Positions 4,962 through 54,383 of a stretch of DNA of 64,000 nt are shown one piece after another. Location of the stretch: assembly GCA_042577965.1 (NCBI GenBank), contig JBHPDK010000001.1, positions 17,537 through 81,536 of the forward strand. The letters run 5' to 3'. The notes under the pieces are model-generated. The model was not told where the DNA came from, did not search any database, and was given only the letters and a program-made list of their open reading frames with translations. The DNA is from Patescibacteria group bacterium. GTDB taxonomy: Bacteria > Patescibacteriota > Gracilibacteria > UBA1369 > PNNO01. The stretch's first letter is position 1, and each line of letters opens with the position of its first letter. Made by a program: the position numbers and the translations under genes.

Positions 4962-5008
4962 ATTATAAATATGTTATAAAAATAAGATCAAATCCTAATA
5001 AAAATCAC

Positions 5009-5599: not shown

Positions 5600-5610
5600 A
5601 GTAAGGCTTG

Positions 5611-6021
5611 TTAAAGTTTTGCACCTAAATCTTTAAGTGCTTTTTTATATATAGTTAAATTAGATTTTGCTTCTTTTGGAGTAATTTTCATCCCGATTTC
5701 GTGTGCAATTTGATTTCGTACTTTATGAGCGCCCCAAACATCATTTAAATTACTAAAAAGCGAAGGAGCTGCTTTTAATTGCTCTCCAACACTACCTTCA
5801 ATTCCTCTGGCTTTTAATGTGTGAGCTAACAGTTTATCAGCATCCAAAATTGCATTATTAGGATTACCATTTGCTTCACGCACAATTCTATTCCAGTGCT
5901 TTTTTATATATGCCTGATCAGCTGTACTTAATACTTTTCGATGAGTTTTTATAAAAACATAAGCAGTAAGTAAAACCGCAAGGCCAATAACAACTAAAAT
6001 GATAATTACAGAAATATCCAT
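5611..6021 (-). CDS. single-pass membrane protein (136 aa)
   Basis: N-terminal TM helix ISVIIILVVIGLAVLLTAYVFI. Abuts the next ORF. Confidence 0.55.
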   Translation of the reverse strand: MDISVIIILVVIGLAVLLTAYVFIKTHRKVLSTADQAYIKKHWNRIVREANGNPNNAILDADKLLAHTLKARGIEGSVGEQLKAAPSLFSNLNDVWGAHKVRNQIAHEIGMKITPKEAKSNLTIYKKALKDLGAKL

Positions 6022-6657
6022 TTATTTTTCTTTTTTAGAGAATTTTCTTAATTTACCTTCATCTTCAGCTTCTTTTGGCATTCCATGATTTTGAACATGA
6101 GTAGAAACCATATCTGAAATAAGCTGTTTTAAGACTTCCTGATCTGTAAAATTCTTTTTTGTCATAAATTTATCCTGATATTTAACAACATTCTTTTCAA
6201 TTCTTTTTGGATTACATGCACTTTTTAAAGTGACTGTTGTTGGACCTCCTAATTTTGCCAAAGTAATATTCCCAAAATTAAATATTGTTGGAATAATTCC
6301 TTTAATCTTATAACTCACACCTTCAATTGACTGATACTCTACCCTGTCACTTGTTCTGTCAAAATATCCTGTCCATTCAACACCTACAATTCCCATGTTT
6401 GTAATTAGCCAACAATCATAATACCAATCCTGAATAACCAATAATAATCTAATAACACCTAAAGCTGCCCATCCAAGATAAATCCAAAACATTTGAGGGA
6501 AGAAGAGCCATAATATGAATGGTAAAGCGCCGTGTAGAGTTATTAATCTTCCAAAATCACGTAGCATAATAAAAACATGGCGATGTCCAACAAAAAAGAT
6601 TTCCTCCTCGTCCTCCAGGTAATCCTGATATAAAACTTTGCGTATACTTAATGACAT
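6022..6657 (-). CDS. membrane protein, possibly bacterial PH-domain (YdbS/YdbT-like)
   Basis: Two central TM helices followed by a beta-rich segment. The family assignment is tentative. Confidence 0.55.
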   Translation of the reverse strand: MSLSIRKVLYQDYLEDEEEIFFVGHRHVFIMLRDFGRLITLHGALPFILWLFFPQMFWIYLGWAALGVIRLLLVIQDWYYDCWLITNMGIVGVEWTGYFDRTSDRVEYQSIEGVSYKIKGIIPTIFNFGNITLAKLGGPTTVTLKSACNPKRIEKNVVKYQDKFMTKKNFTDQEVLKQLISDMVSTHVQNHGMPKEAEDEGKLRKFSKKEK

Positions 6658-6743
6658 ATAGATAGATTATTTACATAAACATAGTAACATTTTTTCAAAA
6701 TAATTAAAGTTTTGGTACAATCAGAGATGATTTAACAAAAATA

Positions 6744-7643
6744 ATGAAAGTAATATTCTTTGGAACACCTGAAATTTCGCTCCCCTTTCTACAAATGCTC
6801 ATTGAAGATCATGAAATTGATGTGGAAGCAGTTGTAACAAAACCAGACAAACCAGTTGGACGAAAACAGGAATTAACTAAGCCTCCGATAAAAAAATTAG
6901 CTGAGGAGCATGATATTAAAGTTTTACAGCCAAAAAAAAACGAAGCAGATTTTGCTGATTTTATAAAAAAACATGATGCTGATTTTAATGTTGTTATTTC
7001 TTATGGTGAAATTTTGCCAACTCCTGTTTTAGAAGCTCCAAAGCACGGATCTGTTAATATTCATTTTTCATTGCTGCCTAAATATCGAGGTGCTGCGCCG
7101 GTTCAAACAGCGCTTTTAAATGGCGATAAAGAAACTGGCATTACAATAATGAAGATGTCTCACAAATTAGATGAAGGAGATATTTATTTAATAAAAAAAA
7201 TTGAGATAACTGATGATGAAAATTCAGAAACATTATTAAAAAGATTGGCTGACCTTGGTGCAATAATGCTTCCTTCAGCTTTGCGTGATATTGCTGATGG
7301 AGTCTTAACTCCCCTGCCCCAGAATGAAGAAAACGCAACTTTTTGTCATAAAATTCAAAAAGAAGATGCAAAGATTGATCCTTTGAATGATTCTGCTGAT
7401 GAAATCATGAATAAATACAGAGCTTTTCAGCCCTGGCCAGGTGTATTTTTTATGTTTAAAGATAAAAGATGCAAATTAATTGAAATTGAAAGAACAGAAA
7501 AAACTGCTGCGCCAGGAGATTTAGTTGAAAATGAAAAAGAATTAGTACTTGGGACAAAAAAAGGCAGTTTGAAAGTAAAAATCCTTCAGCCTGAAGGTAA
7601 AAAGCCAATTGATGATAAAGATTTTATTAATGGCTTTCTTTAA
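6744..7643 (+). CDS. fmt: methionyl-tRNA formyltransferase
   Basis: KVIFFGTPEISLPFLQ and HFSLLPKYRGAAPVQ motifs. 299 aa. Confidence 0.93.
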   Translation: MKVIFFGTPEISLPFLQMLIEDHEIDVEAVVTKPDKPVGRKQELTKPPIKKLAEEHDIKVLQPKKNEADFADFIKKHDADFNVVISYGEILPTPVLEAPKHGSVNIHFSLLPKYRGAAPVQTALLNGDKETGITIMKMSHKLDEGDIYLIKKIEITDDENSETLLKRLADLGAIMLPSALRDIADGVLTPLPQNEENATFCHKIQKEDAKIDPLNDSADEIMNKYRAFQPWPGVFFMFKDKRCKLIEIERTEKTAAPGDLVENEKELVLGTKKGSLKVKILQPEGKKPIDDKDFINGFL

Positions 7644-8958
7644 TAATAAATTTTCCGCAAAGCGCAAAAATCAAAAACAGCAAAGCCATGCCGTGATAGA
7701 GCGAGGCAGTGTAATGATCAAACATTCCAACTACAAAGATTGAAGCTAAAATTGCTAATAATATTGGACCAAAATCTTTAGCTGCTTTTTTCATTTTCAA
7801 AAATACTCCAACTGAAAACCCGACAAATAAAGAAATAAAAGCTAAGGCACCCTGAATTCCCATCTCATTTAACATAAGCATGTACGAATTATGCACAGGC
7901 TGATACTGCCATGGTGCTAATTTAAGTGAGGTAAAGTCAGGTAGATTTAGGGTGAAATTCCCAAGCCCGACTCCGAATGGAGTATGCCAAAACATACTTT
8001 TACTTACATTAAAATAAAATATTCTGTCATTAAAACTTGCTGTATCAGTAAATAAAAATCTGCTTAAAAAAGTTTGTTCTAAATTAAATAAAACTACAAA
8101 AAATAATAAAAATGCAGCAAAAAGAATAATATATTTAAGTGATAACTTGCTTTCTTTAACTGAAAAATAAACAAGCGCAGCTAATAAAAATGCCAGGAAT
8201 GCTCCCCTGCTAAAAGCTAAAATAAACGCAGCAATTAAAACTAACATCACAGGGTAAGCAAAATGTTTTTTTTGTTTAATTTTATAATAAGCTAAAAAGA
8301 TTCCTGTTAATAAATATCCAGCTAAAATATTTGGATGAGGCAGGGTTCCGTATGGTCTAATAATTTTGGCTCCTTCTTCAATATCAATTTTTGCTACGCC
8401 AGCAACATCAGGACCAATAAAAGATTCCCCTAAGAATGAAAGGCCGATTGAGCCCTGGAAAACATACTGAAGAATTGCAATCAAAGCCTGCAATGTAACA
8501 GAAGCTAAAAATACATTCACTAATGTATCTAACTTAACTGTTTTGTTAATAATATAAATATATAAAAGTAAAAATTGAACAATACGAATAACAATATTAA
8601 AAGAAAGCCACTGATCTTCTGCAAACAAAACCGAAAGTTCAGCAAATATCAAAAACAAAAACATGAGCATAAAAATAAATGCATTGCCATAAGTAAATTT
8701 TTCTTTATATTCATGTTTAAAAATTGAAATCGCCCAAAAAACTAATGCAAATAAGAACAAAAAATCAGTTAAATAAATAAAAACCGATGTAAATGGATTA
8801 AAATTCCCTTCTACAAATACTTCAGGTGCGTAAATAATTACATTTATTTGAAAAGGCAGCAAAAATACAAACGCATAAAGAAAGAATTTACTTAAGTTCA
8901 AAGGTGTTATTACCTTGCTTAAGTAGTTAAGATGCTTCTTCAGTTTCTTCTGGTACAT
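7627..8958 (-). CDS. O-antigen ligase-like (Wzy_C) polytopic membrane protein
   Basis: Many TM helices and the Wzy_C-type segment AFSRGAFLAFLLAALVY. Overlaps the fmt 3' end by 17 nt. Confidence 0.75.
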   Translation of the reverse strand: MYQKKLKKHLNYLSKVITPLNLSKFFLYAFVFLLPFQINVIIYAPEVFVEGNFNPFTSVFIYLTDFLFLFALVFWAISIFKHEYKEKFTYGNAFIFMLMFLFLIFAELSVLFAEDQWLSFNIVIRIVQFLLLYIYIINKTVKLDTLVNVFLASVTLQALIAILQYVFQGSIGLSFLGESFIGPDVAGVAKIDIEEGAKIIRPYGTLPHPNILAGYLLTGIFLAYYKIKQKKHFAYPVMLVLIAAFILAFSRGAFLAFLLAALVYFSVKESKLSLKYIILFAAFLLFFVVLFNLEQTFLSRFLFTDTASFNDRIFYFNVSKSMFWHTPFGVGLGNFTLNLPDFTSLKLAPWQYQPVHNSYMLMLNEMGIQGALAFISLFVGFSVGVFLKMKKAAKDFGPILLAILASIFVVGMFDHYTASLYHGMALLFLIFALCGKFIIKESH

Positions 8959-10390
8959 TGATTGCTGGATAAAGTCCTACAACAGGCAATATAGCATTTA
9001 TTTCTTCTTGTGCAATCTTCATTGCATCCTGTGGACTTTTTGTAGCTAAAACCGCGTTAATAGCTTTTAGCATAGAATCAGCATAAACACCTTCATCATA
9101 AACAGGAAGACTTTCTGCAAAACCAATTTGCTCTGCAAATACACCGTAAATTGGGTCAGCTTTTTGATCTTCAATCATATCCCTACGGCTTGTAGGTTTG
9201 TGAGTTTTTTCATTGTAATGCTCAAGAGATTCTTTTTGTGTAAGGAAATATAGAAAATCCCATGCCCAGCCGGTATTTTGCGAAGTTCTAGCAACTGTTT
9301 CAACAAAATAATGAGCATATGCATCGCGCTTTTCTGTTGTCTGAGCAGGATCTTTTATTTGAGGTATAACAGCAATTCGCACACTGTCTGTATCAATAGT
9401 GGTTAAGCCTTTTGCTTTGAGTTCATTAATTTCATCAATGATTTGGTCATACATATTTGAATAACCTAAAATCATCGAAACCTTTCCTCTTGCAAAAGTT
9501 GTTATTTCTTTTGTATCTGAATTTGGATCAGCAAGGTATGCATTCCATGAATAATTTTTTTGTGATGGAGTAGCAAAACTCGTATAAAAGTTTAAAGCAT
9601 CTGCACCTGGATTTATTGGACTTCCATCACTTCCTACTCCCTGTTGCTGCGAGAATATTGCTTTTTGGAAGTTCTGATCATAAAAATCTCCTTCACTTTG
9701 AATCATTAATAAATAAAGAATATCAACAGCTCTTGTTATATTTTCTCCAAATCCCATTGCAATACCCGAAACTTCAAATCTTTCAAAGCTCTGGTCACTT
9801 TTAGTTAATTTAAATACATCGTCTTTAAGAGTTTCCCAGGTTTCTGCTGGTTTGCCTCTTTCTGGGATAGCATCATCGTAATGATCTTTATTATAATAAA
9901 GCGCAAGTGTATCAACAGTCATAGGTAGGGCATAAACCTGATTTTCGCCTGTTTCAGGATTCGCTCTTACCAGATCATCATAAGTTACTGAAACAAATGT
10001 ATCTTCAAAAATCTCTGAAGGAAGCATATTTGTAGGTGCAGGCGATACTTTTTTGTGATTTTTAATAAACCATGTATTTGGAACTGAAAAAATATCAGGC
10101 CCTTCACCTTCTGCAAGTTCATTTAAAATTAAATCATAATACTCCTGCGTATCAGTAAACTGGCGGTAATTCACCTTAACATTAGGAAATTTCGCCCTAT
10201 ATTCCTGAATCAAAGGTTCAATAACCTCAGAATCGTCAAATAGCTTATAATAAGTCAGTTCAACCATGTCCTGGCTCGTTCTGGGCTTAAATTCCTTTGT
10301 TCTAAAACATCCTGCACTAAATGCAATCCCAAAGATCATAAGTAATCCTAAAACAGAGCCGCCAATAATTAGTAATGTTTGTTTATTCAT
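8927..10390 (-). CDS. extracellular solute-binding protein (ABC family-1-like), membrane-anchored
   Basis: N-terminal TM anchor followed by an SBP-like sequence (ELTYYKLFDD..., GPDIFSVPNTWF). No permease or ATPase gene is adjacent. Confidence 0.75.
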   Translation of the reverse strand: MNKQTLLIIGGSVLGLLMIFGIAFSAGCFRTKEFKPRTSQDMVELTYYKLFDDSEVIEPLIQEYRAKFPNVKVNYRQFTDTQEYYDLILNELAEGEGPDIFSVPNTWFIKNHKKVSPAPTNMLPSEIFEDTFVSVTYDDLVRANPETGENQVYALPMTVDTLALYYNKDHYDDAIPERGKPAETWETLKDDVFKLTKSDQSFERFEVSGIAMGFGENITRAVDILYLLMIQSEGDFYDQNFQKAIFSQQQGVGSDGSPINPGADALNFYTSFATPSQKNYSWNAYLADPNSDTKEITTFARGKVSMILGYSNMYDQIIDEINELKAKGLTTIDTDSVRIAVIPQIKDPAQTTEKRDAYAHYFVETVARTSQNTGWAWDFLYFLTQKESLEHYNEKTHKPTSRRDMIEDQKADPIYGVFAEQIGFAESLPVYDEGVYADSMLKAINAVLATKSPQDAMKIAQEEINAILPVVGLYPAINVPEETEEAS

Positions 10391-10428
10391 ACATATATAT
10401 TATACTACAAAATTCGCGCTTAAACAAA

Positions 10429-10457
10429 TTGCAAAATAGCTTTTTTTGTAGTATAAT
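10429..10457 (+). promoter_or_regulatory. sigma70-like promoter (TTGCAA-17 nt-TATAAT)
   Basis: TTGCAA at 10429-10434 and TATAAT at 10452-10457. The downstream leader is nearly identical to the one at 49748-49794. Confidence 0.5.
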
Positions 10458-10486
10458 AGAAGTAGAAATAAATAAAAAAATAAAAT

Positions 10487-10849
10487 ATGGCAGAAGTACC
10501 ACCAGATTCATACGAACAACCTAATGCAGATGAACTAGATGAAATACAAAGAGGTCAGTTTGAAGCATTAGAAGCTCGAAAAGAACAAGAAGAAGCACTG
10601 TATGCTCAGGATATTGGTAATGACGTGGAATGGGCACATGACCATGCGATGAATGTCGTAGATAATGGTGTGCATAATGCCGATCAACCGGATTTTGATT
10701 CTTTACCACCTGATGTTCCTGTGCAAAATTGGGAAGATTATTCAGCTGCTGCTGAAGAAGAAGAAGAAGCACTTCCTGATCAAATATATTCAGAAGATGA
10801 AAGAATGGAGGGTGAAGGTGGGGCTGCAGGCGGTGCATTTGGAGCTTAA
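10487..10849 (+). CDS. highly acidic low-complexity protein (120 aa)
   Basis: ORF behind a consensus promoter. Asp/Glu-rich with a Gly/Ala tail. Overlaps the GT2 stop by 4 nt. Confidence 0.5.
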   Translation: MAEVPPDSYEQPNADELDEIQRGQFEALEARKEQEEALYAQDIGNDVEWAHDHAMNVVDNGVHNADQPDFDSLPPDVPVQNWEDYSAAAEEEEEALPDQIYSEDERMEGEGGAAGGAFGA

Positions 10850-11769
10850 ACTCCTTCTTTTAATCCTTTAAGAAAGTATTTTTTTGAAAGCGCATAATAA
10901 TATAGGGCTGCGTAGCGGTCATTTGATATTTCGCGAATTTTTTTTAATAAAAAGATTGAAATTGGACTTGCAAGCACTCCAAATATGAATTTTTTGAAAT
11001 TTGAAGGAACTTTTTTTAATTCAGGATATTTTTCATGAATTAAATGCGCTGATTTACCAATATTTCGCATTCGCCCTTCAAGGCTCGATTCATCCATTGG
11101 ATGATTATGGTAGCCAATAGCATGTGGATTGTAATAAAGCTTTAAGCCGACTTTTTTTGTTAATCTGTAACCAAGTTCAATATCTTCCCAGCCATACGAA
11201 CTAAAACGTGAATCAAATGGATTTTTTATTAAAAGTGACCTTTTAACAGAAAGGTTTGAAGTATAGAAAAAATTATAATCAGCTGTTTTTTTGCCTTCCA
11301 GTTTTTCAAATGCAAACTGATGGCCCCCAAATTTACCAAAAATTGACGAGCCATTAGTAAGCCAGTACATAAAAGGAGTAATCTCAAGGCGTGGATCCCA
11401 TCCTACAAATCCTAAAACTGCTTCATTTTCAGATGGATGCTTTCTGTGAATTTTTAAATGTTCGCTAATAAAATCAGGCCTAACCAAAATATCATCACCA
11501 ATAAAAATTAGAATTTTGCCTGCTGCATGTTTTAAGCCGTAATTTCTGGCAATCCCCTGCCCCTGATTTTTTTGATACAAGTAATTTATTTGGATTGGGG
11601 ATTTTTTTTGAGCATTTTCAACAACTTCGCTTGTTGAATCTGTGCTTCCGTCATCAACTATAACAATTTCATATTCATCTTTAATGAATTCCTGATCTTT
11701 TAACTTTTTAAGGCATTCTTTTAATGACTCAGCCCTGTTATAAGTTGGAATAACAATTGATACCTGCAC
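10846..11769 (-). CDS. family 2 glycosyltransferase
   Basis: VSIVIPTYNRAESL and VDDGSTD motifs. Confidence 0.9.
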   Translation of the reverse strand: MQVSIVIPTYNRAESLKECLKKLKDQEFIKDEYEIVIVDDGSTDSTSEVVENAQKKSPIQINYLYQKNQGQGIARNYGLKHAAGKILIFIGDDILVRPDFISEHLKIHRKHPSENEAVLGFVGWDPRLEITPFMYWLTNGSSIFGKFGGHQFAFEKLEGKKTADYNFFYTSNLSVKRSLLIKNPFDSRFSSYGWEDIELGYRLTKKVGLKLYYNPHAIGYHNHPMDESSLEGRMRNIGKSAHLIHEKYPELKKVPSNFKKFIFGVLASPISIFLLKKIREISNDRYAALYYYALSKKYFLKGLKEGV

Positions 11770-11777
11770 TTTAAATA

Positions 11778-11812
11778 AAGTTAGTGACGCAGAAATTTTA
11801 CGTCACTAACTT
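11778..11812 (-). terminator. hairpin after ssb (12-bp perfect stem)
   Basis: AAGTTAGTGACG...CGTCACTAACTT, followed on the minus strand by TTATTTAAA. Lies between the ssb stop and the GT2 start. Confidence 0.5.
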
Positions 11813-11844
11813 AAAAAATACCAGTAAAAGCTTTTCGCTGCGCT

Positions 11845-12252
11845 CTACTGCTCAGTTTCTTCCTCATCTTCTTTAGGATCAACAGGATCAATCGAAGCTT
11901 TAGGATTCCCGTCTTTATCTTTTTTAAGATTCAGAAACTTAATATTACGAGCTACAATCTCAGTTAAGTACTTTTTGTCACCTTCTTTGGTTTCGTAACT
12001 GCGGTTTTTCAAAGTGCCTTCCAAATAAATACTTGAACCTTTTTCCAAATATTCACCACAAATTTCACCAAGACGCTTCCATGCAACAACTTTGTGAAAA
12101 TCTGTCGCACTTACCTTTTTACCTTCTTCGTCTTTCCATTGCCTATTAGTAGCAATAGAAAAATTTGCTACAGCTTTACCTGTAGATGTCTCGCGCATAT
12201 CTGGATCTGCTGCGAGATTGCCCATGAGTGTGACTCTGTTTAGACTCCTCAT
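11845..12252 (-). CDS. ssb: single-stranded DNA-binding protein
   Basis: OB-fold N-terminus LNRVTLMGNLAADPDMRETSTGKAVANFSIATNRQW and an acidic C-terminal tail. Confidence 0.92.
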   Translation of the reverse strand: MRSLNRVTLMGNLAADPDMRETSTGKAVANFSIATNRQWKDEEGKKVSATDFHKVVAWKRLGEICGEYLEKGSSIYLEGTLKNRSYETKEGDKKYLTEIVARNIKFLNLKKDKDGNPKASIDPVDPKEDEEETEQ

Positions 12253-12394
12253 AATAATGGGGTTAAAAAATATTACCCCTAGCGTAGCAATTAAAAATTA
12301 AATTATTCTAAAATAAATCTAAAAAAAATAACGTCAAATTTCTTGTGTTTATGAGGAAAATCCAGAATAATAAATCAGACTTTAAAAATTACAT

Positions 12395-13009
12395 ATGTTC
12401 ACAGGCATAGTAAAAGAACTCGGAATTATCAAATCTCTTAAAAAAGAGGCAGATAAATTAATTGCAACTATTGAATCTGACCAAAAATTCAATGTAGATG
12501 ATTCAGTTTCAGTAAATGGAGTTTGCTCGACAGTTATATTAGTTGGCGATGGATCGTTTACTGTTGAATATATGCCGGAAACACTTAAAATCACTGATAT
12601 CACTAAATGGAACGAAGGCGATAAAGTAAACCTGGAACCTCCGCTCACGCTTGGCGATAAATTAAATGGCCATTTTGTTCAGGGGCATGTTGACACAACC
12701 GCCAAAATCACCAAAATCCACAAAAACGAATTTGAAATCGCATTCCCTAAAGAATTCTCAAAATATATAGCAATTAAAGGTTCAATTTCAGTTGATGGCA
12801 TAAGCCTCACAATCTCAAATATCTCAAAAAACACTTTTACTGTCTCATTAATCCCCCATACCCTCAAAAATACTACTCTGGGATTCAAAAACGAGGGTGA
12901 TTTGGTTAATATTGAGGTGGATATGATATCGCGCTATCTAAAAAGGCTGTTTGATGAGCGTGATAAGCAAACCGATTATCAATTCTTAAAAGAAAGAAAT
13001 TTTATATGA
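12395..13009 (+). CDS. ribE: riboflavin synthase
   Basis: MFTGIV start and two internal lumazine-binding repeats (GDKVNLE / GDLVNIE). Confidence 0.9.
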   Translation: MFTGIVKELGIIKSLKKEADKLIATIESDQKFNVDDSVSVNGVCSTVILVGDGSFTVEYMPETLKITDITKWNEGDKVNLEPPLTLGDKLNGHFVQGHVDTTAKITKIHKNEFEIAFPKEFSKYIAIKGSISVDGISLTISNISKNTFTVSLIPHTLKNTTLGFKNEGDLVNIEVDMISRYLKRLFDERDKQTDYQFLKERNFI

Positions 13010-13455
13010 AGCAAAAAATTTCACAAAAATCAGATCTCAATGGCAAGGGCATAAAAGTTGCAATTGTGATGTCAGAATTTAATAAAGAAATTTGTGAAAA
13101 ATTGCTTGAAGAAGCAAAACACGAATTAGATAATTTAAAAGTCAAAAACCCGAAAATCGTTTATGTACCAGGAGCATTAGAAATTCCTGTTGCAACTCAA
13201 AAACTTATTAAAAACAATGAATTTGATGTTATTATTGCTCTTGGAGTTGTGATTAAAGGTGAGACTGATCATTACGAGCATGTATCGAGAGAAAGCACTC
13301 ATGCCCTTACACAAATTGCTGTTCAAACCGGAGTACCTGTTATTCAGGGAATCCTCACAGTTCCAAATAAAGAACTCGCACTCGCACGCGCTTTCCGAGG
13401 CAAAGAATATGCCAGAGCAGCGATCCAAATGGTTCATACATTAAAAAATCTTTAA
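13006..13455 (+). CDS. ribH: 6,7-dimethyl-8-ribityllumazine synthase
   Basis: KVAIVMSEFNKEI and GVVIKGETDHYEHV motifs. 4-nt overlap with ribE. Confidence 0.92.
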   Translation: MKQKISQKSDLNGKGIKVAIVMSEFNKEICEKLLEEAKHELDNLKVKNPKIVYVPGALEIPVATQKLIKNNEFDVIIALGVVIKGETDHYEHVSRESTHALTQIAVQTGVPVIQGILTVPNKELALARAFRGKEYARAAIQMVHTLKNL

Positions 13456-13466
13456 ATAATATTAAT

Positions 13467-14648
13467 ATGAAACTTAATTCTATTAAAAACGCCAAAGTTA
13501 AAGGCCAAACTGTACTTGTTCGTGTTGATTACAATGTGCCTATCGAAAATGGCAAGGTTATGGATGATTCACGTATTGTTGAATCCCTACCTACTCTCGA
13601 ATATTTATTAAAAGAAGGAGCGAAAGTTATTGTTATGTCGCATTTGGGAAGACCTGAAGGAGAAGTTGTTGAAGAATTAATGCTGAATCCTGTTGCTGTG
13701 CGTTTAGGCGAACTTTTAAAAAAAGAAGTTATTAAAGTTGATGATTGCGTTGGAGAAGAAGTTGAAGGCGCAGTTAAAGCATTAGGCGAAGGCAGCATTT
13801 TAATGTTAGAAAATACTCGTTTTAATGAAGGAGAGAAATCAAATGATCATGAATTTGCAAAACAATTAGCAAGTTATGCGGATTTGTATGTGAGCGATGC
13901 TTTTGGAACTGCACACAGGGCCCATGCATCAACTGAAGGCGTAGCACAATTATTGCCATCATATGCAGGATTTTTAATTGAAAAAGAAGTTAAAGCTTTA
14001 ACTCCCCTACTCGGAGATGTTGAAGGGCCTTTTGTTTTATTATTAGGTGGAGCAAAAATCGATACAAAAATCGGCGTAATTAAAGCTTATTTAGAAAAGG
14101 CAGACAAAATTTTATTAGGAGGAGGCCTGGCAAACACTTTTGTAGCTGCTGAAGGTTATAATGTTGGAGAATCTTTATACGAACCTGATAAACTCGAGGT
14201 TGCCCGCGAAATAATGCTCGAAGCTGAAAAACAGAGCTGCGAAATTGTTTTACCCGGCGGATTTATTGTTGCAGATGAAGTCGGAGACAATGTTTTAACA
14301 GCAGACATGGAAATAACAGGAGTTGAAGCTAATATGAAAATGCTTGATATCGGAGTTAAAACTTTATACAAATATTTGGACATATTGCAGGAGGCTAAGG
14401 TGATAATTTGGAATGGCCCGGTAGGATTATACGAAAAAACTCCCTTCTCGCGAGGCACACGCGAAATAGCAGACGCATTACAAAACGTTAAAGGCAAAAC
14501 TTACATCGGCGGCGGCGACACTCTAAGTGCTTTAACGCACTTTGGCTTCGACCGTGACAAATACACACACGTATCAACAGGCGGCGGAGCTATGCTAGAG
14601 TTTTTGGAAGGGAAGGAATTGCCGGGGCTAAAAGTATTGGTAGGTTAG
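13467..14648 (+). CDS. pgk: phosphoglycerate kinase
   Basis: [15 protein letters not shown] and GGGDT motifs. 393 aa. Confidence 0.95.
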
Positions 14649-17600
14649 GCAGCTTTTGGCCTTTTCTTCATAGATTCCCACATATATTTATTATGGGCTT
14701 CAACTTTAACCATGAAATCACTATCATGAGTTCTAATAAAATCGTCAACTTCTGATGTTTTTAGACCTAACTGCTGTTTTAATTTATTTGATAGTTTTGG
14801 ATAAGCAGCAGCTGCTTCAGCTGCTTGTTCTGGTGTTGGTTTTACTCCTTTTTGGAGTTTTGTTCCTTTTGGAATGAGATCTTTAGCTGCTGCATCATAA
14901 GCTGCTTTTCCTAATTCAGGATTTCTCTTTTTAATAAAAGCATGTACATCACTTGTTTCAGCACCAAGTTCTTTTAATTTTTTTGTCAATACTTTATATT
15001 TTTGACCTACTTGAGCTGCTGGTAATTTTCCTTTTGCTGGAATACCAAGTTCTTGACAGGCTTGATAATAGTAGCTGTCATTGCGAGTTAGCGGCCCTGT
15101 TCTTTCATTTAATTTAACAATTTTTTCTTTACTTACCCATTCTCCTTTTCTTCCTTTCTGAATTAATATCTCTACTTTTCCATTTCTTGTTACTCTTGTT
15201 TGATCTGTTATTTTCCATCCATAATCATAATTCCCTTTTGTTCCACCACCGATTACATATCGATCCTTTTTATTTTTTAATTTATCAAAAGCCTTTTCAG
15301 TAGCTGTAGCAGGTTTAGGAGCAGTTGGAGCAGGTTTAGGACGTTTTCCTTTTCCATCCCAAAATTCACGGCCCTTTGCTTTATAGAGTGCTGCCATTTC
15401 TTTATTTTTCTTAGCTGTTTTTGCAACAGTATCTCGGCCAATTGTACCTTTGGCTGTGGTGGTGGGTTGACCAATTCCACCACCTTCTTTTGCCTTAGCA
15501 GCTGGTGGCTTTGGTTTAGATGGTTGAAGTTTTCTGCCATCCTTAATTCTCACTTGTTTATGTCCATCAATTCCTGGTTTTGGTTTTGCAGCTGGAGTTG
15601 GCTTAGCAGGTTTTTTAACTGGTTTTTTTTGAGGTCTTTTAACTTTTGGTCTTCCTTTAACTCCATGAGGATTAGCTTTCTTAACTGTATCTATTGATGC
15701 CTCTCTAACTTCATACCTCTTATTACCACGTTTACCAGCTTTAGCAGCTTTCCCAGTAGGTTTATGACGCACCACTCCACCATGTTTATTTCTCTTCAAC
15801 CTTCTAACTTTAACATATGCTACTTTTTTACCTCCAATGTCTTTCTCAAAAAAACCAACAATTTCCCATTCACGTTTTTGTAGCTTAAGACTTCTAGCAC
15901 TAGGTTTAAGACCAGCCCGTTCACGCCTTGGAAGCTCTATTCTTTGTCTTTTTTTAAAACCACGAGCTTCAAATTTTTCTGCTGCGAGTTCTGCTGAGGA
16001 TTTAATTTTTGGTTTTGCAGCTGGTGCAGGTCTTGTTACCTTAGCAGCTGGAACTGGCTTAGCAGCTGGTTTTGCAGTTGGCTTAGCAGCTGGTTTTGCA
16101 GTTGGTTTAGATGGTTGAAGTTTCCTTCCATCCTTAAATCTCACTTGTTTAGTTGGATCAATAAGTTGTTTTGTCTGCGTTACATTTGCTGCTGGAGCTG
16201 GTTCAAGTTTTGATTTAGGCCTTGCACCTGGTTTTATAGGCTGTTTAACCGGTGGTCTTCCTTGAACTTTCGGAGCAGCTGGTTTTGTTACCTTCACAGG
16301 TGGAACGGGCTTTGGCGTTGCGACGGGCTTTGGCGTTAGAACGGGCTTTGGCGTTGCAATGGGCTTTGGCGGCCCTTTTAATTTTTTACCTACTCTACCT
16401 GCTACTCTTGTGAAAACACCAACTTTACCTGCCTGCCCTGCACCTTTTGCTGCTGCTGCCTCCCCTCCTCCGAATATGGTAGTTACAATATTTAACATAG
16501 CTTTAGCAGCTCCTTTTTCATAATTGCCTTTTTTGAAGTCATCAACTGCCAAAAATGCATCTTCAAATTGTTTCCTTGCATTCCATGCTGTTTTTAAAGA
16601 CCATTTACCTGATCTCGGATCTCGTCCAATAAAAGCCATCATTGCTATCATTGACTTTTCCCAATCAGCTGACATATCAGCTACTCCGCTAAGCATATCA
16701 CTAATACCTTCAAAAGTACCTGCACTTCCCTTAAAGCTTGAACCCAAGTATGAAGTAGTAAATTCTAAACCAGGAATTTTTAATTTTTGAAAATAATTTC
16801 CCATGCTCTCCAAATTCCCTGCAATCTGCTTTCTAAAAAGCCATTTTATACCTTTTGACATATATGGCGCTGCAGCATTATTAAATACAAAACCAAATGC
16901 CTTAGATTGCAAATCGCTTGCAGCTTTAAGCCAACCAGGCTTTTTCACAGCATCACTCACTTTTAATGAAGTGTTGATTCCTGTTTTTAAAGAACTTAAC
17001 ACTTGTGCATTTCTAATATTAATATCCAATATTGAATCAGCATTTACTTTTGCCAAATTATCTACTCCATCAATCAATGGCATAAACAGTGCATTAACCC
17101 GATCTGTAACGTTACCATGTCTAAGTTTTTGAACTTCAAGAGTTCGAATAGAATCATCCATAGATGTTAAAGCCGGATCTATACTCCCTTCAATATATTC
17201 AGTAATTGCTACCCTTTTTACTTTTTTTGCTGTTAATTTTTCATGTATTAATCCAGTATGAATATGTAAGGTTTTCCTCTTCTTCTTTAATATTTCTACA
17301 AAACGTTGTTTTTGCTTCTCTGTCATATTCAACTGCTTTGCAGGAGTTTTAATAAGTTTATCAATTTTATCTGCAGCTTTATCCATAGTATCTCGAGCTT
17401 CTGCTTCTGGATATGTAAATGTATGACCTTTTTTCAACCGATCTAACTGCCTCTGTTTTAATGCCAAAAGTTGCTGCTTTTTATTATTCATCATTTCTTG
17501 CTGCTCATGAAAATAATTGTACATCTTATTATTTTTATTTCCATCTACATCTATACCTCCGGCTTTATAGTATGCAGTTAGATATTTTAGTGACTTTTGT

Positions 17601-18367
17601 CTTGCTTCTATTAACTTTTTTTTTGTTTTTGGAGCAACTTCATTGATTTTTTTACCATGAGCCTCTATATCTTTTTTTCGATTCTCAACTTTAGTTAAAA
17701 GGCTTTTTTTTGCTGCTAATACCCTTTTTTTATATTTATCTTTAATTTTATTATAAAGGGCTGAATTTTTCTTCTTTTGATAAGTTGATAATTTTAAATA
17801 TTTAATTGAAGCTGTTTGTAATTCACCACATGCCGTTAATCCTTGAGCTGCTTCGTTTTGAAGTTTTATTGATTGAGTCTGCATTCTAAGCAATTCCTGC
17901 TGTTGACGTGCTGGACTAGCTAAATTAAAAGTACTGAATTTATCTTTAACCTTTAATGCCCCCTGTTGAAACGCTAACTGTTGTTTCGATAATTCCTTTT
18001 CTTTTCCCTTAACTTCCAAAGCAGCTCTCATTCTTGCATCAATCAATTCCTGCGAAGGAGCATATTTATTAACTATCACATTTGTTTTTGCAATCATTGA
18101 TCTGTGATATTTGCCAAATTCCTCTTTGCTCAAACCTTTAGTAGCATTCTTATCAAATCTGTCTGCAGCCATTAAAAAATACTTCGCAATGTGTTTTTTC
18201 ATAGCAGCTTTTACATCAGGAGGCATGTGATCCATTCTCTTTTTGTATTTTGCAAATGTTGCACTCGTCTCATTTGCAAGTTTTTTCACATTCGGAGTCA
18301 AAACAACGCCTTTTTCAGCTTTCCCCTCAAGTTTCTTTAATTGTTGAGCTGATAATGCTTCTGACAT
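14645..18367 (-). CDS. 1240-aa lysine-rich repeat protein, no signal peptide, function unknown
   Basis: Uninterrupted ORF. N-terminal coiled-coil-like K-rich region, a Gly/Ala-rich central block, Pro/Ala/Lys tandem repeats, and duplicated KQVR(F/I)KDGRKLQPSKP and C-terminal modules. Confidence 0.85.
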   Translation of the reverse strand: MSEALSAQQLKKLEGKAEKGVVLTPNVKKLANETSATFAKYKKRMDHMPPDVKAAMKKHIAKYFLMAADRFDKNATKGLSKEEFGKYHRSMIAKTNVIVNKYAPSQELIDARMRAALEVKGKEKELSKQQLAFQQGALKVKDKFSTFNLASPARQQQELLRMQTQSIKLQNEAAQGLTACGELQTASIKYLKLSTYQKKKNSALYNKIKDKYKKRVLAAKKSLLTKVENRKKDIEAHGKKINEVAPKTKKKLIEARQKSLKYLTAYYKAGGIDVDGNKNNKMYNYFHEQQEMMNNKKQQLLALKQRQLDRLKKGHTFTYPEAEARDTMDKAADKIDKLIKTPAKQLNMTEKQKQRFVEILKKKRKTLHIHTGLIHEKLTAKKVKRVAITEYIEGSIDPALTSMDDSIRTLEVQKLRHGNVTDRVNALFMPLIDGVDNLAKVNADSILDINIRNAQVLSSLKTGINTSLKVSDAVKKPGWLKAASDLQSKAFGFVFNNAAAPYMSKGIKWLFRKQIAGNLESMGNYFQKLKIPGLEFTTSYLGSSFKGSAGTFEGISDMLSGVADMSADWEKSMIAMMAFIGRDPRSGKWSLKTAWNARKQFEDAFLAVDDFKKGNYEKGAAKAMLNIVTTIFGGGEAAAAKGAGQAGKVGVFTRVAGRVGKKLKGPPKPIATPKPVLTPKPVATPKPVPPVKVTKPAAPKVQGRPPVKQPIKPGARPKSKLEPAPAANVTQTKQLIDPTKQVRFKDGRKLQPSKPTAKPAAKPTAKPAAKPVPAAKVTRPAPAAKPKIKSSAELAAEKFEARGFKKRQRIELPRRERAGLKPSARSLKLQKREWEIVGFFEKDIGGKKVAYVKVRRLKRNKHGGVVRHKPTGKAAKAGKRGNKRYEVREASIDTVKKANPHGVKGRPKVKRPQKKPVKKPAKPTPAAKPKPGIDGHKQVRIKDGRKLQPSKPKPPAAKAKEGGGIGQPTTTAKGTIGRDTVAKTAKKNKEMAALYKAKGREFWDGKGKRPKPAPTAPKPATATEKAFDKLKNKKDRYVIGGGTKGNYDYGWKITDQTRVTRNGKVEILIQKGRKGEWVSKEKIVKLNERTGPLTRNDSYYYQACQELGIPAKGKLPAAQVGQKYKVLTKKLKELGAETSDVHAFIKKRNPELGKAAYDAAAKDLIPKGTKLQKGVKPTPEQAAEAAAAYPKLSNKLKQQLGLKTSEVDDFIRTHDSDFMVKVEAHNKYMWESMKKRPKAA
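15513..15560. repeat. 48-nt dispersed direct repeat, copy 1 (inside the 1240-aa gene)
   Basis: ggtttagatggttgaagttttctgccatccttaattctcacttgttta. 45 of 48 positions match copy 2. Confidence 0.85.
16041..16106. repeat. 24-nt tandem repeat (ttagcagctggttttgcagttggc x2 plus a partial unit)
   Basis: Read directly. Encodes KPTAKPAAKPTAKPAAKP. Confidence 0.85.
16104..16151. repeat. 48-nt dispersed direct repeat, copy 2
   Basis: ggtttagatggttgaagtttccttccatccttaaatctcacttgttta. Confidence 0.85.
16305..16376. repeat. 18-nt tandem repeat x4 (acgggctttggcgttnnn)
   Basis: Read directly. Encodes KPIATPKPVLTPKPVATPKPV. Confidence 0.85.
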
Positions 18368-18378
18368 ATTTTTTGTGT

Positions 18379-18693
18379 TTATTTAATATTTTGACTTTCT
18401 TTTTTTGCAATATCACGGTTTAATTCAACATATTTTTTGTGTATTGCTTTATCCATCACTTTTGGAAATTTTTTATTTAAAATAACAGCTTTTAGCATAA
18501 ATCTATTTTGCTTTTTCTTGGCATCCTTAAGTAACTGATGCATTTCATCAAATGCTTCAGAAGGTAAATTTTCAAACCTACCCAATACTCTCTGAATCTC
18601 CTCTTCTGTTAAAAAATAAAGGCTTGAAAGCTCATCTTCAAGCTTTTTCAATCTTTTATCCTGTTCTTTTACTAATTGTAGATATTTATTCAT
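18379..18693 (-). CDS. small helical protein (104 aa), first gene of the operon with the 1240-aa protein
   Basis: ORF 35 nt downstream of a consensus promoter. Its stop lies 11 nt before the 1240-aa start. Confidence 0.6.
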   Translation of the reverse strand: MNKYLQLVKEQDKRLKKLEDELSSLYFLTEEEIQRVLGRFENLPSEAFDEMHQLLKDAKKKQNRFMLKAVILNKKFPKVMDKAIHKKYVELNRDIAKKESQNIK

Positions 18694-18728
18694 TTTTATT
18701 TTTGTTATTTTTTCACAACCACAAGAAT

Positions 18729-18757
18729 ATTATACCATTTCTTGGCATAATCGTCAA
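18729..18757 (-). promoter_or_regulatory. sigma70-like promoter (TTGACG-17 nt-TATAAT, TG-extended)
   Basis: Minus strand reads TTGACGattatgccaagaaatggTATAAT. Confidence 0.55.
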
Positions 18758-18774
18758 CTAAGCAGCGCTAAAAA

Positions 18775-21453
18775 CTATTTCTTCGGCTTAAACTTGCCCT
18801 TTGGTAGTTCTCGCTTCTCCCCTTCTTTTAGTTCCTTTTTCTCTTTAGCTGTGCTCCATCTATTAATCTTATCTTCAACCATTTCGCGCTTTTTAGCGTA
18901 GCGTTCACGAACAACTTTTCTGATTCGATCTGAGCGTCCTTCCTCAACCTCCAATTCTGGTGGAGGAAGGGTATCTAAAGAGAATGTTTTTGAAGGCATT
19001 CCATCAACTAAAAGCCTTGTATAAGCTGTATATTTGCTTAAACTTACAAGATCAGCCGGCAAAACCTCTTCACCATACTGCTGAGACATATACTCTGCAT
19101 CATCAAATCCTATCTGCATTGATAAAATAGTACCAACGTTACCAAATACAGCATCACGCACTTCATCAGGCATTTGTGCTATATACTGATTCGCCATTGT
19201 CAAATTAAGCTTATATTTACGTGCCTCAGAAAGAATTGTTGCAAACGCTTCTGTTGCAAAATTCTGGAACTCATCCACATATAAATAAAAGTCAGTACGG
19301 TCTTTTTCAGGAATATCCGCTCGACTCATCGCATCAATCTGGAATTTAGTAATGAGCATCGAACCTAATAGCGAAGAATTATCCTCACCCAGCTTACCTT
19401 TTGATAGATTAACAATAATAATTTTCTTCTTATCCATTGCAAATCTTAGGTTCACTGTACTCTTAGGTTGCCCCACAATGTTTCTAACAATAGGACTAGA
19501 TAAAAACTGGCCAACTTTATTCATGATCGGTGAAATCGCTTCAATCTTCATTCTATCCTGCATTGGTTCAAACTCTTTTTCCCAAAAGGCTCTTAAAACC
19601 GGATCTTCAAGTTTTCGTACAACTTTTCGTCTATAATCCTTATCCTGTAAAATTCGTGTAATTCCAAGCATTGTTGTATTTGGATAATGCAGCAATGATA
19701 GGATTGTATTCCTTAAAATATGCTCTAAACGCGGCCCCCAACTATCTGCATAAATCTTTTTAAAGATTCCAACAAGACCTGAAGAAATAATTGTATTTAA
19801 TGATGGATCTTTTGTCTCAAGCATATTAAATGCAATCGGGAAGTCGCGATCGGTAGGGTCAAATAAAATAACATCATTAGTTCTGTTTGCAGGTATAAAA
19901 TCCAAAACACTTTCAGCTAAATCTCCATGCGGATCAATAACAGCAACACCTTTACCTGCCTGGATATCGCTAAATATCATATTTTCAAGTAGAGTCGTCT
20001 TACCCATACCGGTTTTACCAATAATGTATACGTGACGCCTTCTATCCAGACCTTTAATTCCAAACGTCTTACGAATTCCTCTAAAATTACTTCTTCCCAT
20101 TAATGTTAAATCATCAGCAAGTTCGCCTTTTGGCTCAGGTAAATCAACAGGTGGCTCAAGTTTACGTGACTTAACCCAGAATATATTTGGGGTAGCAACA
20201 GTTTGATTTGGAAGATGATAAACTGTAGCAAGCTCTTCAACATTTAAAACAAAAGGATCATCAATTACTCTTGAGCGATATTTATCCAAAGCTTCTTTAC
20301 CACTAATATAATTATTTATTTTAAATCCATTAATCTGAGGGATATTAAACTGCTTAAACGAACCTGCAATCTCTCTTAATTTAATCTTAGCGCTTTCCGG
20401 ATTTTTATTTTTTTGCAGATAAAGTATTCTTACATTTGCTTCATATAAAAGCTTAACTACTTTATCCATTGCTGCACCAGCTGAACTCTCGCGTTCATGT
20501 GATTTTGAAGTTAAATCTTCAATATCATCATCAGAGCTTGCACGATCATCAGCTTTAAATGAAATCTTAGTACCTACTTTTAGGCCTTGCAGCCAAAAAA
20601 CAAAATACATAGGGAAGAAAACAACGCGCCATATTTTATTGCGCGTACAGTACATTTTAGTATAAGTCTTTTGAAGCTTCTCAATATTCGCCCAAACACC
20701 TTTATTTACAATCTTCACACATTTAGTAAATAAAATACGCCATTTATCTGATAAAGGCCTTACAACAACCTGTATCCATGCCTGCTCTTCAACATCATTA
20801 AGTTTTGCTAAAGTAGCTGTTACACCTGCAATAGGGTCAACAGCCATACGCGTAATCTTATCTTCAAACTGAACATACCTTTTAATAGGGTAAATTACAG
20901 GATCAGTAAAAGTTAGTTCAGTACCATAAATATTTTTAAATGGATCAAAGTCTTTAAATTCTTTTTTTGGTTGAATTTTTGGAAGATCATTAACAGGCAC
21001 CAAAGCTTCTTCGTTGGCTGGCTTTTCTAAATTTTCACCCATTGAAACCTCCATTTTTTCAATAATCGAATAATCTTTTACTTCTTCAATCTCCACATCA
21101 GGATATTGCGCATAAATCTGCCCTTCAATAAAATTCTTATATTTAACAGGGAAAGCCACATAAAATTTAATATGACTTCCTAAATTAGCTATTTCTAAAC
21201 TAATTCTATCCTGTGTTGTTCCAAATAAAGTTCGCCAAAATCCAAGTTTATGATAAATCCCATGCATTGATGAAAAAATCTGCTCAGCAACAATAGGCCC
21301 TGTTTCGTTCTCTTTACTAACACGCACTTCTAAGACCTGAAATCTTTTAGCAAATTGACGCTGTTTCGCGAGTTTTTGTCTTAATAACTCGAGAAGTACA
21401 AGCGCTGCGTAAACTCCTAATAATATTAGAGCTATCGTAATAAATGTGGTCAT
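18775..21453 (-). CDS. VirD4/TraD/TrwB-like type IV coupling-protein-family P-loop ATPase with a long N-terminal extension
   Basis: N-terminal TM helix. Walker A IIGKTGMGKTTLL at about residue 480, then VIDPHGDL, Walker B YLYVDEFQNF, and LTMANQYIAQM. Confidence 0.8.
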   Translation of the reverse strand: MTTFITIALILLGVYAALVLLELLRQKLAKQRQFAKRFQVLEVRVSKENETGPIVAEQIFSSMHGIYHKLGFWRTLFGTTQDRISLEIANLGSHIKFYVAFPVKYKNFIEGQIYAQYPDVEIEEVKDYSIIEKMEVSMGENLEKPANEEALVPVNDLPKIQPKKEFKDFDPFKNIYGTELTFTDPVIYPIKRYVQFEDKITRMAVDPIAGVTATLAKLNDVEEQAWIQVVVRPLSDKWRILFTKCVKIVNKGVWANIEKLQKTYTKMYCTRNKIWRVVFFPMYFVFWLQGLKVGTKISFKADDRASSDDDIEDLTSKSHERESSAGAAMDKVVKLLYEANVRILYLQKNKNPESAKIKLREIAGSFKQFNIPQINGFKINNYISGKEALDKYRSRVIDDPFVLNVEELATVYHLPNQTVATPNIFWVKSRKLEPPVDLPEPKGELADDLTLMGRSNFRGIRKTFGIKGLDRRRHVYIIGKTGMGKTTLLENMIFSDIQAGKGVAVIDPHGDLAESVLDFIPANRTNDVILFDPTDRDFPIAFNMLETKDPSLNTIISSGLVGIFKKIYADSWGPRLEHILRNTILSLLHYPNTTMLGITRILQDKDYRRKVVRKLEDPVLRAFWEKEFEPMQDRMKIEAISPIMNKVGQFLSSPIVRNIVGQPKSTVNLRFAMDKKKIIIVNLSKGKLGEDNSSLLGSMLITKFQIDAMSRADIPEKDRTDFYLYVDEFQNFATEAFATILSEARKYKLNLTMANQYIAQMPDEVRDAVFGNVGTILSMQIGFDDAEYMSQQYGEEVLPADLVSLSKYTAYTRLLVDGMPSKTFSLDTLPPPELEVEEGRSDRIRKVVRERYAKKREMVEDKINRWSTAKEKKELKEGEKRELPKGKFKPKK

Positions 21454-21467
21454 GTTCTGTTTACTTT

Positions 21468-21926
21468 TTAAGGACTATCGTAAGGTCCCTTTTGATCAGT
21501 CCCCTTTTCCCTATGTAAGTCTAAATAATTTTTAAGAATAAGTGAAGCTGCAATTATATCTGATTCTTTTTTTCGCTTATCTTTTTTCATATCCAGAGAT
21601 GTAATTATACTATCACTTTCCACGCTTGTCAACCTTTCATCCTGATACTTTATTGTGATTTGGAGTTTTTGGCTCAACAGAGCCCCAAAAGCCTCAACTT
21701 TTTTTGTTGTTTTTGTCTTATTTCCTTCCATATTTAAGGGATATCCAAGTACAATTTCTCTTATATTTTCTGCATCACAAATAAGCTTAATTTCACTAAT
21801 AATAAATTCATTTGATTTATTTTCTATTGATGTTCTTCCAAACGCCATTTGCCTTTCTTCATCAGAAACAGCAACGCCAATTCGCTTAGCGCCCCAATCT
21901 AAACCTAAGATCTTGCCTTTTTGCAT
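21468..21926 (-). CDS. ruvX: Holliday junction resolvase-like protein RuvX/YqgF
   Basis: ILGLDWGAKRIGVAVSD N-terminus. 152 aa. Confidence 0.88.
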   Translation of the reverse strand: MQKGKILGLDWGAKRIGVAVSDEERQMAFGRTSIENKSNEFIISEIKLICDAENIREIVLGYPLNMEGNKTKTTKKVEAFGALLSQKLQITIKYQDERLTSVESDSIITSLDMKKDKRKKESDIIAASLILKNYLDLHREKGTDQKGPYDSP

Positions 21927-51120: not shown

Positions 51121-51244
<124 letters not shown>

Positions 51245-51385
51245 AGCTTTTAATTTTCAAAAATCCAACTAAAACAGTTATTCATACAAATTGCTAGTCA
51301 TTGCAATTAAACAAGTATCGATACTCAGTCTCTTACAAGCATGCGACTAAGCATCAACACCTGAAAAATTGCTAAAGTAAGTTCA

Positions 51386-54383
<2,998 letters not shown>

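Follow-up and report, generated by a model that had tools for sequence, protein, structure and literature searches.

Analysis of a 64-kb stretch of low-GC (35%) Patescibacterium chromosomal DNA, hereafter the window, which carries pgk, ribH/E, ssb, ruvX, rplI, ileS and lepA together with 23S and 5S rRNA genes, revealed two adjacent genes on the minus strand encoding proteins of 104 and 1240 amino acids (aa). The gene of the small helical protein, referred to below as the partner, occupied positions 18379–18693 and belonged to an unannotated family in which a giant gene always stood next downstream. The giant gene occupied positions 14645–18367, stop codon included, and its open reading frame (ORF) started 11 nt after the stop codon of the partner gene. 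Both genes appeared to be driven by a sigma-70-type promoter, TTGACG-17-TATAAT, with an extended −10 element (TGGTATAAT; 18729–18757, minus strand), which was situated 18 nt past the stop codon of the upstream gene encoding a VirD4/TrwB-type ATPase. The two ORFs, the spacer and the promoter were thus confirmed as they had been predicted originally from the letters of the window. According to the sequence comparisons presented below, the locus is best described as a self-promoted two-gene cassette that represents an undescribed polymorphic family of giant proteins in Patescibacteria (Peregrinibacteria-type lineages).

The window promoter matched 11 of the 12 consensus positions and, in addition, the TG of the extended −10 element. 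Just two sites scoring at least 11/12 were present in 8.5 kb, the cassette promoter being one of them, and the overall frequency of promoter-like sites in the same 8.5 kb was not above that in shuffled sequence. Each of the nine cassettes checked (window, L001, L002 and L083–L088) had an extended −10 promoter (TGTGGTAtAAT or AAATGGTAtAAT), often with a good −35 element, ahead of its small gene, and consequently the strong-promoter operon noticed earlier in the window is a trait of the family. It should be noted that a perfect (12/12) consensus, TTGACA-17-TATAAT, was located at 21604–21632 (minus strand) within the ruvX coding region, approximately 150 nt 5′ of the ATPase start; it is likely an internal promoter of the ATPase gene.

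The giant protein of the window was rich in lysine (16.8%) and had a net charge of +155. Its maximum Kyte–Doolittle (KD) hydrophobicity over 19 aa was 0.91, and it therefore has neither a transmembrane (TM) helix nor a signal peptide, in agreement with the original description. The conserved N-terminal module (aa 1–660; 16388–18367, minus strand), which defines the family, consisted of a helical head (aa ~1–120), coiled-coil hairpins (aa ~150–475) and a Gly-rich, amphipathic and partly hydrophobic segment (aa ~480–660; 16388–16930, minus strand). The AlphaFold2 model of aa 1–680, built with a 44-sequence family alignment, was entirely helical (predicted template modelling score, pTM, 0.62; mean predicted local distance difference test, pLDDT, 69), with a confident helical head at aa ~10–120 and very long helices at aa 152–196, 202–268, 280–312 and 388–473 (pLDDT up to 96), which accords with the coiled-coil-like N-terminal part recognized initially. 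The Gly-rich segment held the most conserved motifs of the family (e.g., MMAFIGRDP..G.WS), and its KD values in most relatives (1.3–1.9) were near the level of a TM helix. Foldseek comparison of the N-terminal model with the PDB gave nothing at E < 0.1, with template modelling scores below 0.2 and the coiled coils of SMC, MukB and Rad50 ranking first, and comparison with viral folds (BFVD) gave no significant match, only coiled-coil noise.

The polycationic low-complexity middle of the protein (aa 661–1019; 15311–16387, minus strand) had a net charge of +8 to +15 per 50-aa window and contained Pro/Ala/Lys tandem repeats, seen also at the DNA level, a basic Arg/Lys block and two copies of KQVR(F/I)KDGRKLQPSKP; the latter, pointed out already in the first reading of the sequence, corresponded to a 72-nt repeat (85% identity) at 15511–15582 and 16102–16173. 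This region aligned with the relative P0002 only in short pieces. The C-terminal folded domain (aa 1020–1240; 14648–15310, minus strand; 221 aa) was modelled with a pLDDT of 86.7 and a pTM of 0.74 as a three-stranded beta-barrel module (aa 1025–1092) and, after it, a helical bundle in which a helical module occurs twice (aa 1093–1160 and 1179–1223); both copies had been predicted and were recovered by jackhmmer. Two beta-like modules had also been proposed; that at aa 1025–1092 was supported, whereas the first copy (aa ~796–905) was not detected as homologous. The beta part superposed locally on the barrels of chromodomain, Tudor and SAWADEE proteins (root-mean-square deviation of 2.7–3.3 Å over ~45 residues, prob 0.5–0.7, E > 0.4). 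The consensus of this ~65-aa module (...GDxIxIxR..G..E.GW.I...G.v.V.K....K.V.K..IL..NpkGP) occurred two to four times each in other basic members (P0002, P0005, P0007 and P0044), and the P0007 module gave weak matches to SH3_2 and UPF1_1B. Relatives of the basic subclade also ended in a DnaJ-like helix, with HPD in P0044 (aa ~1051–1091) and HTD at the C-terminus of P0007, the Pfam DnaJ match being weak (E = 0.049). No Pfam enzyme domain was found in the C-terminal half of the window's giant, so that the earlier statement that it has no recognizable catalytic motif was correct. Searches of the giant and the partner against Pfam, NCBIfam and PDB sequences yielded sub-threshold noise only (BRCT, a HopBF1 kinase fragment and TF_AP-2).

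When a profile built on the N-terminal 660 aa was used for exhaustive searching with HMMER, 97 representative clusters were found, 73 of them at E < 1e-10. A word-indexed homologue search had been insufficient, as it returned two relatives each for the giant and the partner and none for the C-terminal module, in which case even the near-identical P0001 was missed. The members of the family were mostly 1000–2900 aa long and aligned across the N-terminal module in the same order. None of the clusters had an informative name, and the taxon labels were limited to Candidatus Peregrinibacteria, Patescibacteria group and one metagenome-assembled genome labelled Nitrospirota; the GC content of the contigs hosting them ranged from 34% to 61%. 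Past residue ~700, the members were mutually unrelated, with the exception of small groups. The Pfam scan of 33 members identified Pkinase in five, GGDEF in two, Fic in two, and Peptidase_C2 (calpain-type), Metallophos and a KIF2A-like N-terminal barrel in one each, and kinase catalytic-loop motifs could be read directly in two giants of locus L085. Among the homologues, therefore, a constant N-terminal region was combined with unrelated, exchangeable C-terminal domains, as is characteristic of polymorphic toxin/effector systems. Most members were neutral or acidic, and the strongly basic ones formed a small subclade (P0001, P0002, P0005, P0007, P0011, P0012, P0033, P0035 and P0044). No relative of the N-terminal module, of the partner or of the small barrel repeat was present in Pfam, NCBIfam, PHROG, PADLOC or the PDB, and no description of any of them was found in the literature; the sole match to the 5027 models of PADLOC-DB 2.0 was a weak one of the kinase domain of P0023 to mad6. 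At least 24 of 95 members (P0006, P0017, P0023, P0025 and P0029 among them) opened with the motif R-L-V-[YF]-F-A-x-E-x-P-x-L-S, situated directly ahead of the conserved module, and the window's giant began right after the position of this motif. The motif also started an otherwise unrelated 263-aa ORF beside the L085 cassettes (L085:72–863, minus strand), and it could be a targeting signal.

A partner homologue was located immediately upstream of all 13 giants in the 11 cassette loci examined (window, L001, L002 and L083–L090, with three giants in L085). In L083–L090, these homologues were 97–119 aa long and constituted one family (hidden Markov model, HMM, E-values of 1e-20 to 4e-37), and the partner HMM matched no other ORF in 82 ATPase loci, L083–L088 and the window. 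In five cassettes, the giant gene was followed by a gene of ~180–200 aa, whose product varied with the C-terminus of the giant. Thus, P0006 and P0015 matched each other in the C-terminal part (38% identity over 739 aa), and the 179- and 180-aa proteins encoded downstream of them were homologous (E = 2e-24; L084/L088 pair); the downstream proteins of the two kinase-type giants of L085 were likewise homologous to each other (E = 1e-12; L085a/b pair), whereas that of the GGDEF-type giant of L087 was different from both. The region L085:1007–14870 contained three small-plus-giant cassettes in tandem, and the first two giants, ending in kinase-like domains, were each followed by a homologous gene of 179 or 203 aa. 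In L084, a gene of a tyrosine recombinase (Xer/integrase-type), split by an intein with a LAGLIDADG domain, was situated just upstream of the P0006 cassette (L084:5431–7617).

Comparison of the window with L001 revealed identities of 87% for the ATPase and 77–85% for the neighbouring genes, as against 55% for the small protein and 36–47% for the giant; the pair evolves much faster than the genes around it. At the strain level, positions 4645–21726 of the window were compared with L002 (99.3% DNA identity), and the differences were limited to patches in the small gene with its promoter, the giant gene, fmt and the ATPase gene. The promoter and small gene carried 40 differences, including a 9-bp indel at 18711–18719, with 16 synonymous and 8 non-synonymous codon changes. 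All 27 nucleotide differences in the giant gene fell within a patch of ~300 bp (aa 445–530; 16757–17057, minus strand), with 13 synonymous and 12 non-synonymous codon changes. In fmt (6744–7643), 17 synonymous and 10 non-synonymous changes were found, and in the ATPase gene, 14 and 0, respectively; of ten other genes, nine were identical at the DNA level and one had a single difference. The pattern suggests recombination imports together with relaxed or diversifying selection on the pair and strict purifying selection on the ATPase, although the patches may instead be an artefact of population-consensus assembly. No polymorphism of repeat length was detected between the window and L002, the repeats being affected by single-nucleotide differences at most. 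The fastest-evolving gene of the block was an extremely acidic ORF of 120 aa (net charge −30; 10487–10849, plus strand), which was 24–31% identical to its L001 counterpart and kept its position between the GT2 and SBP genes in L001–L005, L008 and L009.

The cassette occupies an interval whose content changes among the relatives of the window. Genomes with a 74–85% identical ATPase kept all or part of the order ruvX–ATPase–[slot]–pgk–ribH–ribE–ssb–GT2, and the pair was missing from them. The slot between the ATPase gene and pgk (14648–18775 in the window) held unrelated genes in L003–L006, L008 and L010 and was empty in L007 and L009, this interval being a hypervariable slot in the window's lineage. 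The genes observed in it were RidA/ThrC-like in L004, L006 and L008 and other hypothetical genes in L003, L005 and L010. Insertion of a mobile element was considered but found no support: the window locus had no flanking direct or inverted repeats and no integrase, and the GC shift was mild, being slightly raised only in the repeat-coding part of the cassette (0.389 vs. 0.349).

The constant N-terminus, obligate partner, swappable tips, downstream gene that co-varies in relatives, tandem cassettes, variable location and fast evolution together point to a polymorphic-effector architecture. By analogy with the LXG–Lap, Rhs and CDI (contact-dependent inhibition) polymorphic effectors, the N-terminal module and the small partner would form a delivery or targeting unit, in which the Gly-rich amphipathic segment may mediate membrane insertion; by means of this unit, the C-terminal cargo would leave the cell and reach a host or a neighbouring bacterium, and the downstream gene, where present, would act as an inhibitor or immunity factor. 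We give about even chances to the proposition that the module and its partner deliver variable cargo to another cell. The cargo of the window's member would be non-enzymatic, with cationic Pro/Ala/Lys linkers (histone-H1/HBHA-like), a chromo/Tudor/SH3-like barrel and a helical bundle, and, to judge from its composition and fold class, it most likely binds a polyanion, e.g., nucleic acid or an anionic polymer of the cell envelope or wall. Such binding would account for the dispensability of an immunity-like gene downstream. The original proposal of a transported substrate with its own partner thus retained the obligate partner and the effector-like architecture of the family, whereas its link to a type IV secretion system (T4SS) through the adjacent ATPase was unsupported.

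Several observations weigh against delivery to another cell. Export of the giant is an inference by analogy; the window's giant carries no signal peptide, LXG, PAAR, RHS, TPS, MuF, BID and XVIPCD domains were absent from the Pfam/NCBIfam scans of the 33 members, and no secretion apparatus was encoded beside any cassette examined. The model of the N-terminal module was moderately confident (pLDDT 69), its Gly-rich part (aa ~480–660) was poorly predicted (low pLDDT), and in the window's giant this part was weakly hydrophobic (KD 0.91). The likeness to chromo and Tudor barrels was local and statistically non-significant. The window and L001 had no downstream gene, pgk converging straight onto the stop codon of the giant gene, and the window's giant has neither an enzymatic domain nor a downstream partner that would show a toxin/immunity logic. 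Finally, the kinase, GGDEF, Fic and phosphoesterase domains of the family are also ordinary outputs of intracellular signalling or abortive infection.

The last point leads to the best-surviving alternative, namely, an intracellular conflict or signalling system (e.g., anti-phage defence or abortive infection), in which the giant would be a cytoplasmic sensor or scaffold, its variable C-terminus would act in the producer, the small partner and the ~180-aa protein would serve as regulator and antitoxin, and the polycationic protein of the window would bind nucleic acid inside the cell. The lack of secretion signals and of adjacent secretion genes fits this explanation, as do the kinase, Fic, GGDEF, protease and phosphoesterase domains, which are common in defence effectors, and a variable slot with fast evolution suits defence islands. 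The L088 cassette adjoined an Eco47II-type restriction–modification pair and an SMC_N/AAA_21 gene, and AAA_21/ABC-like genes were located near the cassettes of L084 and L090; most cassettes, however, were set among housekeeping rather than defence genes. Apart from the weak kinase-domain match mentioned above, the PADLOC models remained unmatched, and neither an NTPase or nuclease domain nor a known sensor domain was found in the N-terminal module. For abortive infection, GGDEF would be unusual, as would a polycationic cargo without an enzyme, and the near-TM character of the Gly-rich segment would be left unexplained. On balance, we regard an intracellular role as rather unlikely, though the most serious of the rivals to delivery.

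In the model based on the original prediction, the adjacent VirD4/TraD-like ATPase would recruit the giant as a substrate for a T4SS-like machine, and the 104-aa protein would act as its chaperone or adaptor. The gene next to the pair (18775–21453, minus strand; 892 aa) indeed encodes a TM-anchored ATPase of the TrwB/VirD4/TraG type, with an N-terminal TM helix and matches to TrwB_AAD_bind, T4SS-DNA_transf and TraG-D_C in the Pfam/NCBIfam scans, i.e., a type IV coupling protein (T4CP) domain, along with DUF8128 according to precomputed annotations. A scan of species-representative genomes revealed 80 ATPase loci (53–85% identity in the ATPase domain) in Peregrinibacteria, Falkowbacteria, Parcubacteria, Saccharibacteria and others, and the ATPase is accordingly one of the core genes of Patescibacteria. 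In the window, L001 and L002, the pair lay side by side with the ATPase gene and shared its strand. However, when the surroundings of the ATPase gene were searched with phmmer and the family HMM, the pair was found within 10 kb of it at only two of 82 loci, L001 and L002, which are the nearest relatives of the window, and none of the eight other family loci had an ATPase homologue; linkage is thus not conserved, which was the result that the prediction itself had named as counting against it. The genomes with a 74–85% identical ATPase and the same synteny without the pair, as well as the strict purifying selection on the ATPase, which the pair does not share, argue in the same direction. The window (64 kb) had no VirB4, VirB6 or pilus genes. 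In the family, the N-terminus is the conserved part, whereas VirB/D4 signals are located at the C-terminus, and the 33 members scanned had no Pfam match to the BID or XVIPCD signals of T4SS effectors. The basic tail KKRPKAA noticed originally is real, but it was less basic than the protein's own background (+3 vs. +4.3), and no such tail was conserved in the family (mean charge of +0.6 vs. a background of +0.4 in 77 members), so that it was rejected as a secretion signal. At L089:18783–19136 (minus strand), a T4SS_pilin (PF18895) gene was observed on the far side of ftsZ and ftsA, ~7.5 kb downstream from the P0044 cassette; it may be counted in favour of a T4SS route, as may the Fic-type cargo, which is reminiscent of the Bartonella Bep effectors. 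Patescibacteria possess thousands of orphan T4CP homologues, and their widespread T4SS/T4CP genes have no known substrate; these homologues are mostly unlinked to virB4 and have perhaps been exapted for other functions, and t4cp was non-essential for epibiotic growth in the one strain tested (PMC12102498). Taken together, the adjacency is specific to the window's lineage, and the comparisons offer no evidence of a functional link between the ATPase and the pair. Recruitment by this ATPase is accordingly improbable and survives only as a possible route of delivery.

Still less probable, to the point of being quite doubtful, is a cytoplasmic, nucleoid-associated structural protein of the histone-H1 type that compacts the cell's own DNA and is highly expressed from its strong promoter. 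The net charge of +155, the Pro/Ala/Lys repeats, similar to those of H1, the C-terminal domain (CTD) of HupB and AlgP, the chromo/Tudor-like barrel, the near-consensus promoter and the lack of an export signal would suit such a protein. However, the pair is accessory and missing from close syntenic relatives, enzymes and a neutral or acidic character prevail among the homologues, Pfam/NCBIfam revealed no DNA-binding core such as HU or Hc1, and the gene evolves rapidly, with non-synonymous patches at the strain level. Homology to tape-measure or nucleoid proteins, which had been named beforehand as a possible refutation of the transported-substrate proposal, was not found with PHROG, tblastn, Pfam and NCBIfam. 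A prophage remnant consisting of a tail tape-measure protein and its upstream assembly chaperone, which might have been suggested by the long helical protein with a Gly-rich hydrophobic middle, the small upstream gene and the tape-measure proteins among the non-significant Foldseek matches (E of 0.14–0.45), is effectively refuted, as PHROG gave no matches for the giant, the partner or their relatives, tblastn gave none in 50,697 phage records, viral folds returned coiled-coil noise only, phage structural genes were present in none of the 11 loci, and C-termini with kinase, Fic and GGDEF domains and tandem cassettes are not features of tape-measure proteins.

Among the remaining features of the window, 23S and 5S rRNA genes were located at 51125–54381 (minus strand), and no 16S rRNA gene was present anywhere in the 64 kb, which indicates that the rRNA operon is unlinked. 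Two more large ORFs, of 816 aa (34125–36575, minus strand) and 543 aa (37923–39554, minus strand), had no Pfam match at E ≤ 1e-5.

Patescibacteria account for a large part of the diversity of bacteria and have an epibiotic lifestyle, and no described effector that they use on their hosts was found in the literature. Being defined by its sequence, the cassette family gives concrete candidates that can be tested in the few cultivable Patescibacteria systems. As a tentative extension, which we hold possible rather than probable, the helical module and the ~105-aa partner may constitute a new export or targeting device of Patescibacteria, and the family may be the first repertoire of effectors to be recognized in these epibionts (kinases, Fic AMPylators, diguanylate cyclases, proteases and the polycationic binder of the window), delivered into or onto host bacteria, possibly via T4SS/T4CP. 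An intracellular role would instead make the family a modular system of a new kind for conflict or signalling. In both cases, two protein families without annotation (the N-terminal module and its partner) are now available for naming and searching, along with a new small beta-barrel repeat.

In its arrangement, the cassette is closest to the LXG–Lap1/Lap2 modules of type VIIb secretion in Firmicutes, to which the family has no homology. LXG toxins have a helical N-terminus, a variable effector C-terminus, one or more small helical partners encoded upstream and a cognate downstream gene (PMC13622651, citing Whitney 2017). The family resembles them, in arrangement only, in having a small helical gene immediately upstream of every giant (13/13), often several cassettes per genome and, in relatives of the window's pair, a small cognate downstream gene. 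Unlike them, it gave no LXG, WXG100, DUF3130 or DUF3958 match in the giant, the partner or 11 partner homologues, and a kinship of the partner with WXG100/Lap proteins was rejected on the same grounds; its N-terminal module is ~660 aa long and includes a Gly-rich segment, whereas that of LXG proteins is ~200 aa, no EssC-type ATPase was seen, the neighbouring ATPase of the window being of the T4CP type, and the cargo leans to kinase, Fic and GGDEF rather than nucleases or NADases.

With the VirB/VirD4 effectors (the Bartonella Beps with Fic and BID domains and the XVIPCD proteins of Xanthomonas and Stenotrophomonas), the family shares Fic or kinase domains in some members, immunity-like downstream genes in relatives and, in the window's lineage, a position beside a VirD4-like ATPase gene. 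However, these effectors are recognized by C-terminal signals (BID, a basic tail or XVIPCD), whereas the conserved part of the family is N-terminal with no conserved C-terminal signal, and its linkage to the ATPase is not conserved. The family resembles Rhs, CDI and MuF toxins, i.e., polymorphic toxin systems in the sense reportedly given to the term by Zhang, Aravind and colleagues in 2012, in its general logic: the N-terminal delivery part stays constant, the tips are hypervariable, a downstream gene co-varies with them in relatives, diversification is driven by recombination, and cassettes occur in tandem or as orphans. It differs from them in that RHS/YD, TPS/FHA, PAAR and MuF domains were not found in it, several C-termini are signalling-type enzymes and not classic toxins, and the tip of the window's member is non-enzymatic and comes without an immunity gene.

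The Pro/Ala/Lys tandem repeats (AKPAAKPTAKP...) and the very high positive charge of the window's giant are reminiscent of lysine-rich polyanion binders (the CTD of HupB, Hc1, AlgP and the mycobacterial HBHA), of which HBHA, like Hlp, reaches the cell surface without a signal peptide and binds sulfated glycans. There is, however, no homologous core, and the repeats are linkers in a 1240-aa multi-module protein of a mostly non-basic family. Long coiled-coil helices with a hydrophobic segment also recall the binary alpha-pore-forming toxins XaxAB/YaxAB (ClyA-type); XaxB gave a weak profile match (E = 0.013 over 70 residues), and XaxB and YaxAB appeared in the Foldseek lists (E of 3.8–8). These matches are non-significant and reflect a generic coiled coil only, the size and domain order differ, and there is no second subunit of comparable size. 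Systems of this general kind are known, whereas this implementation and the host phylum are new.

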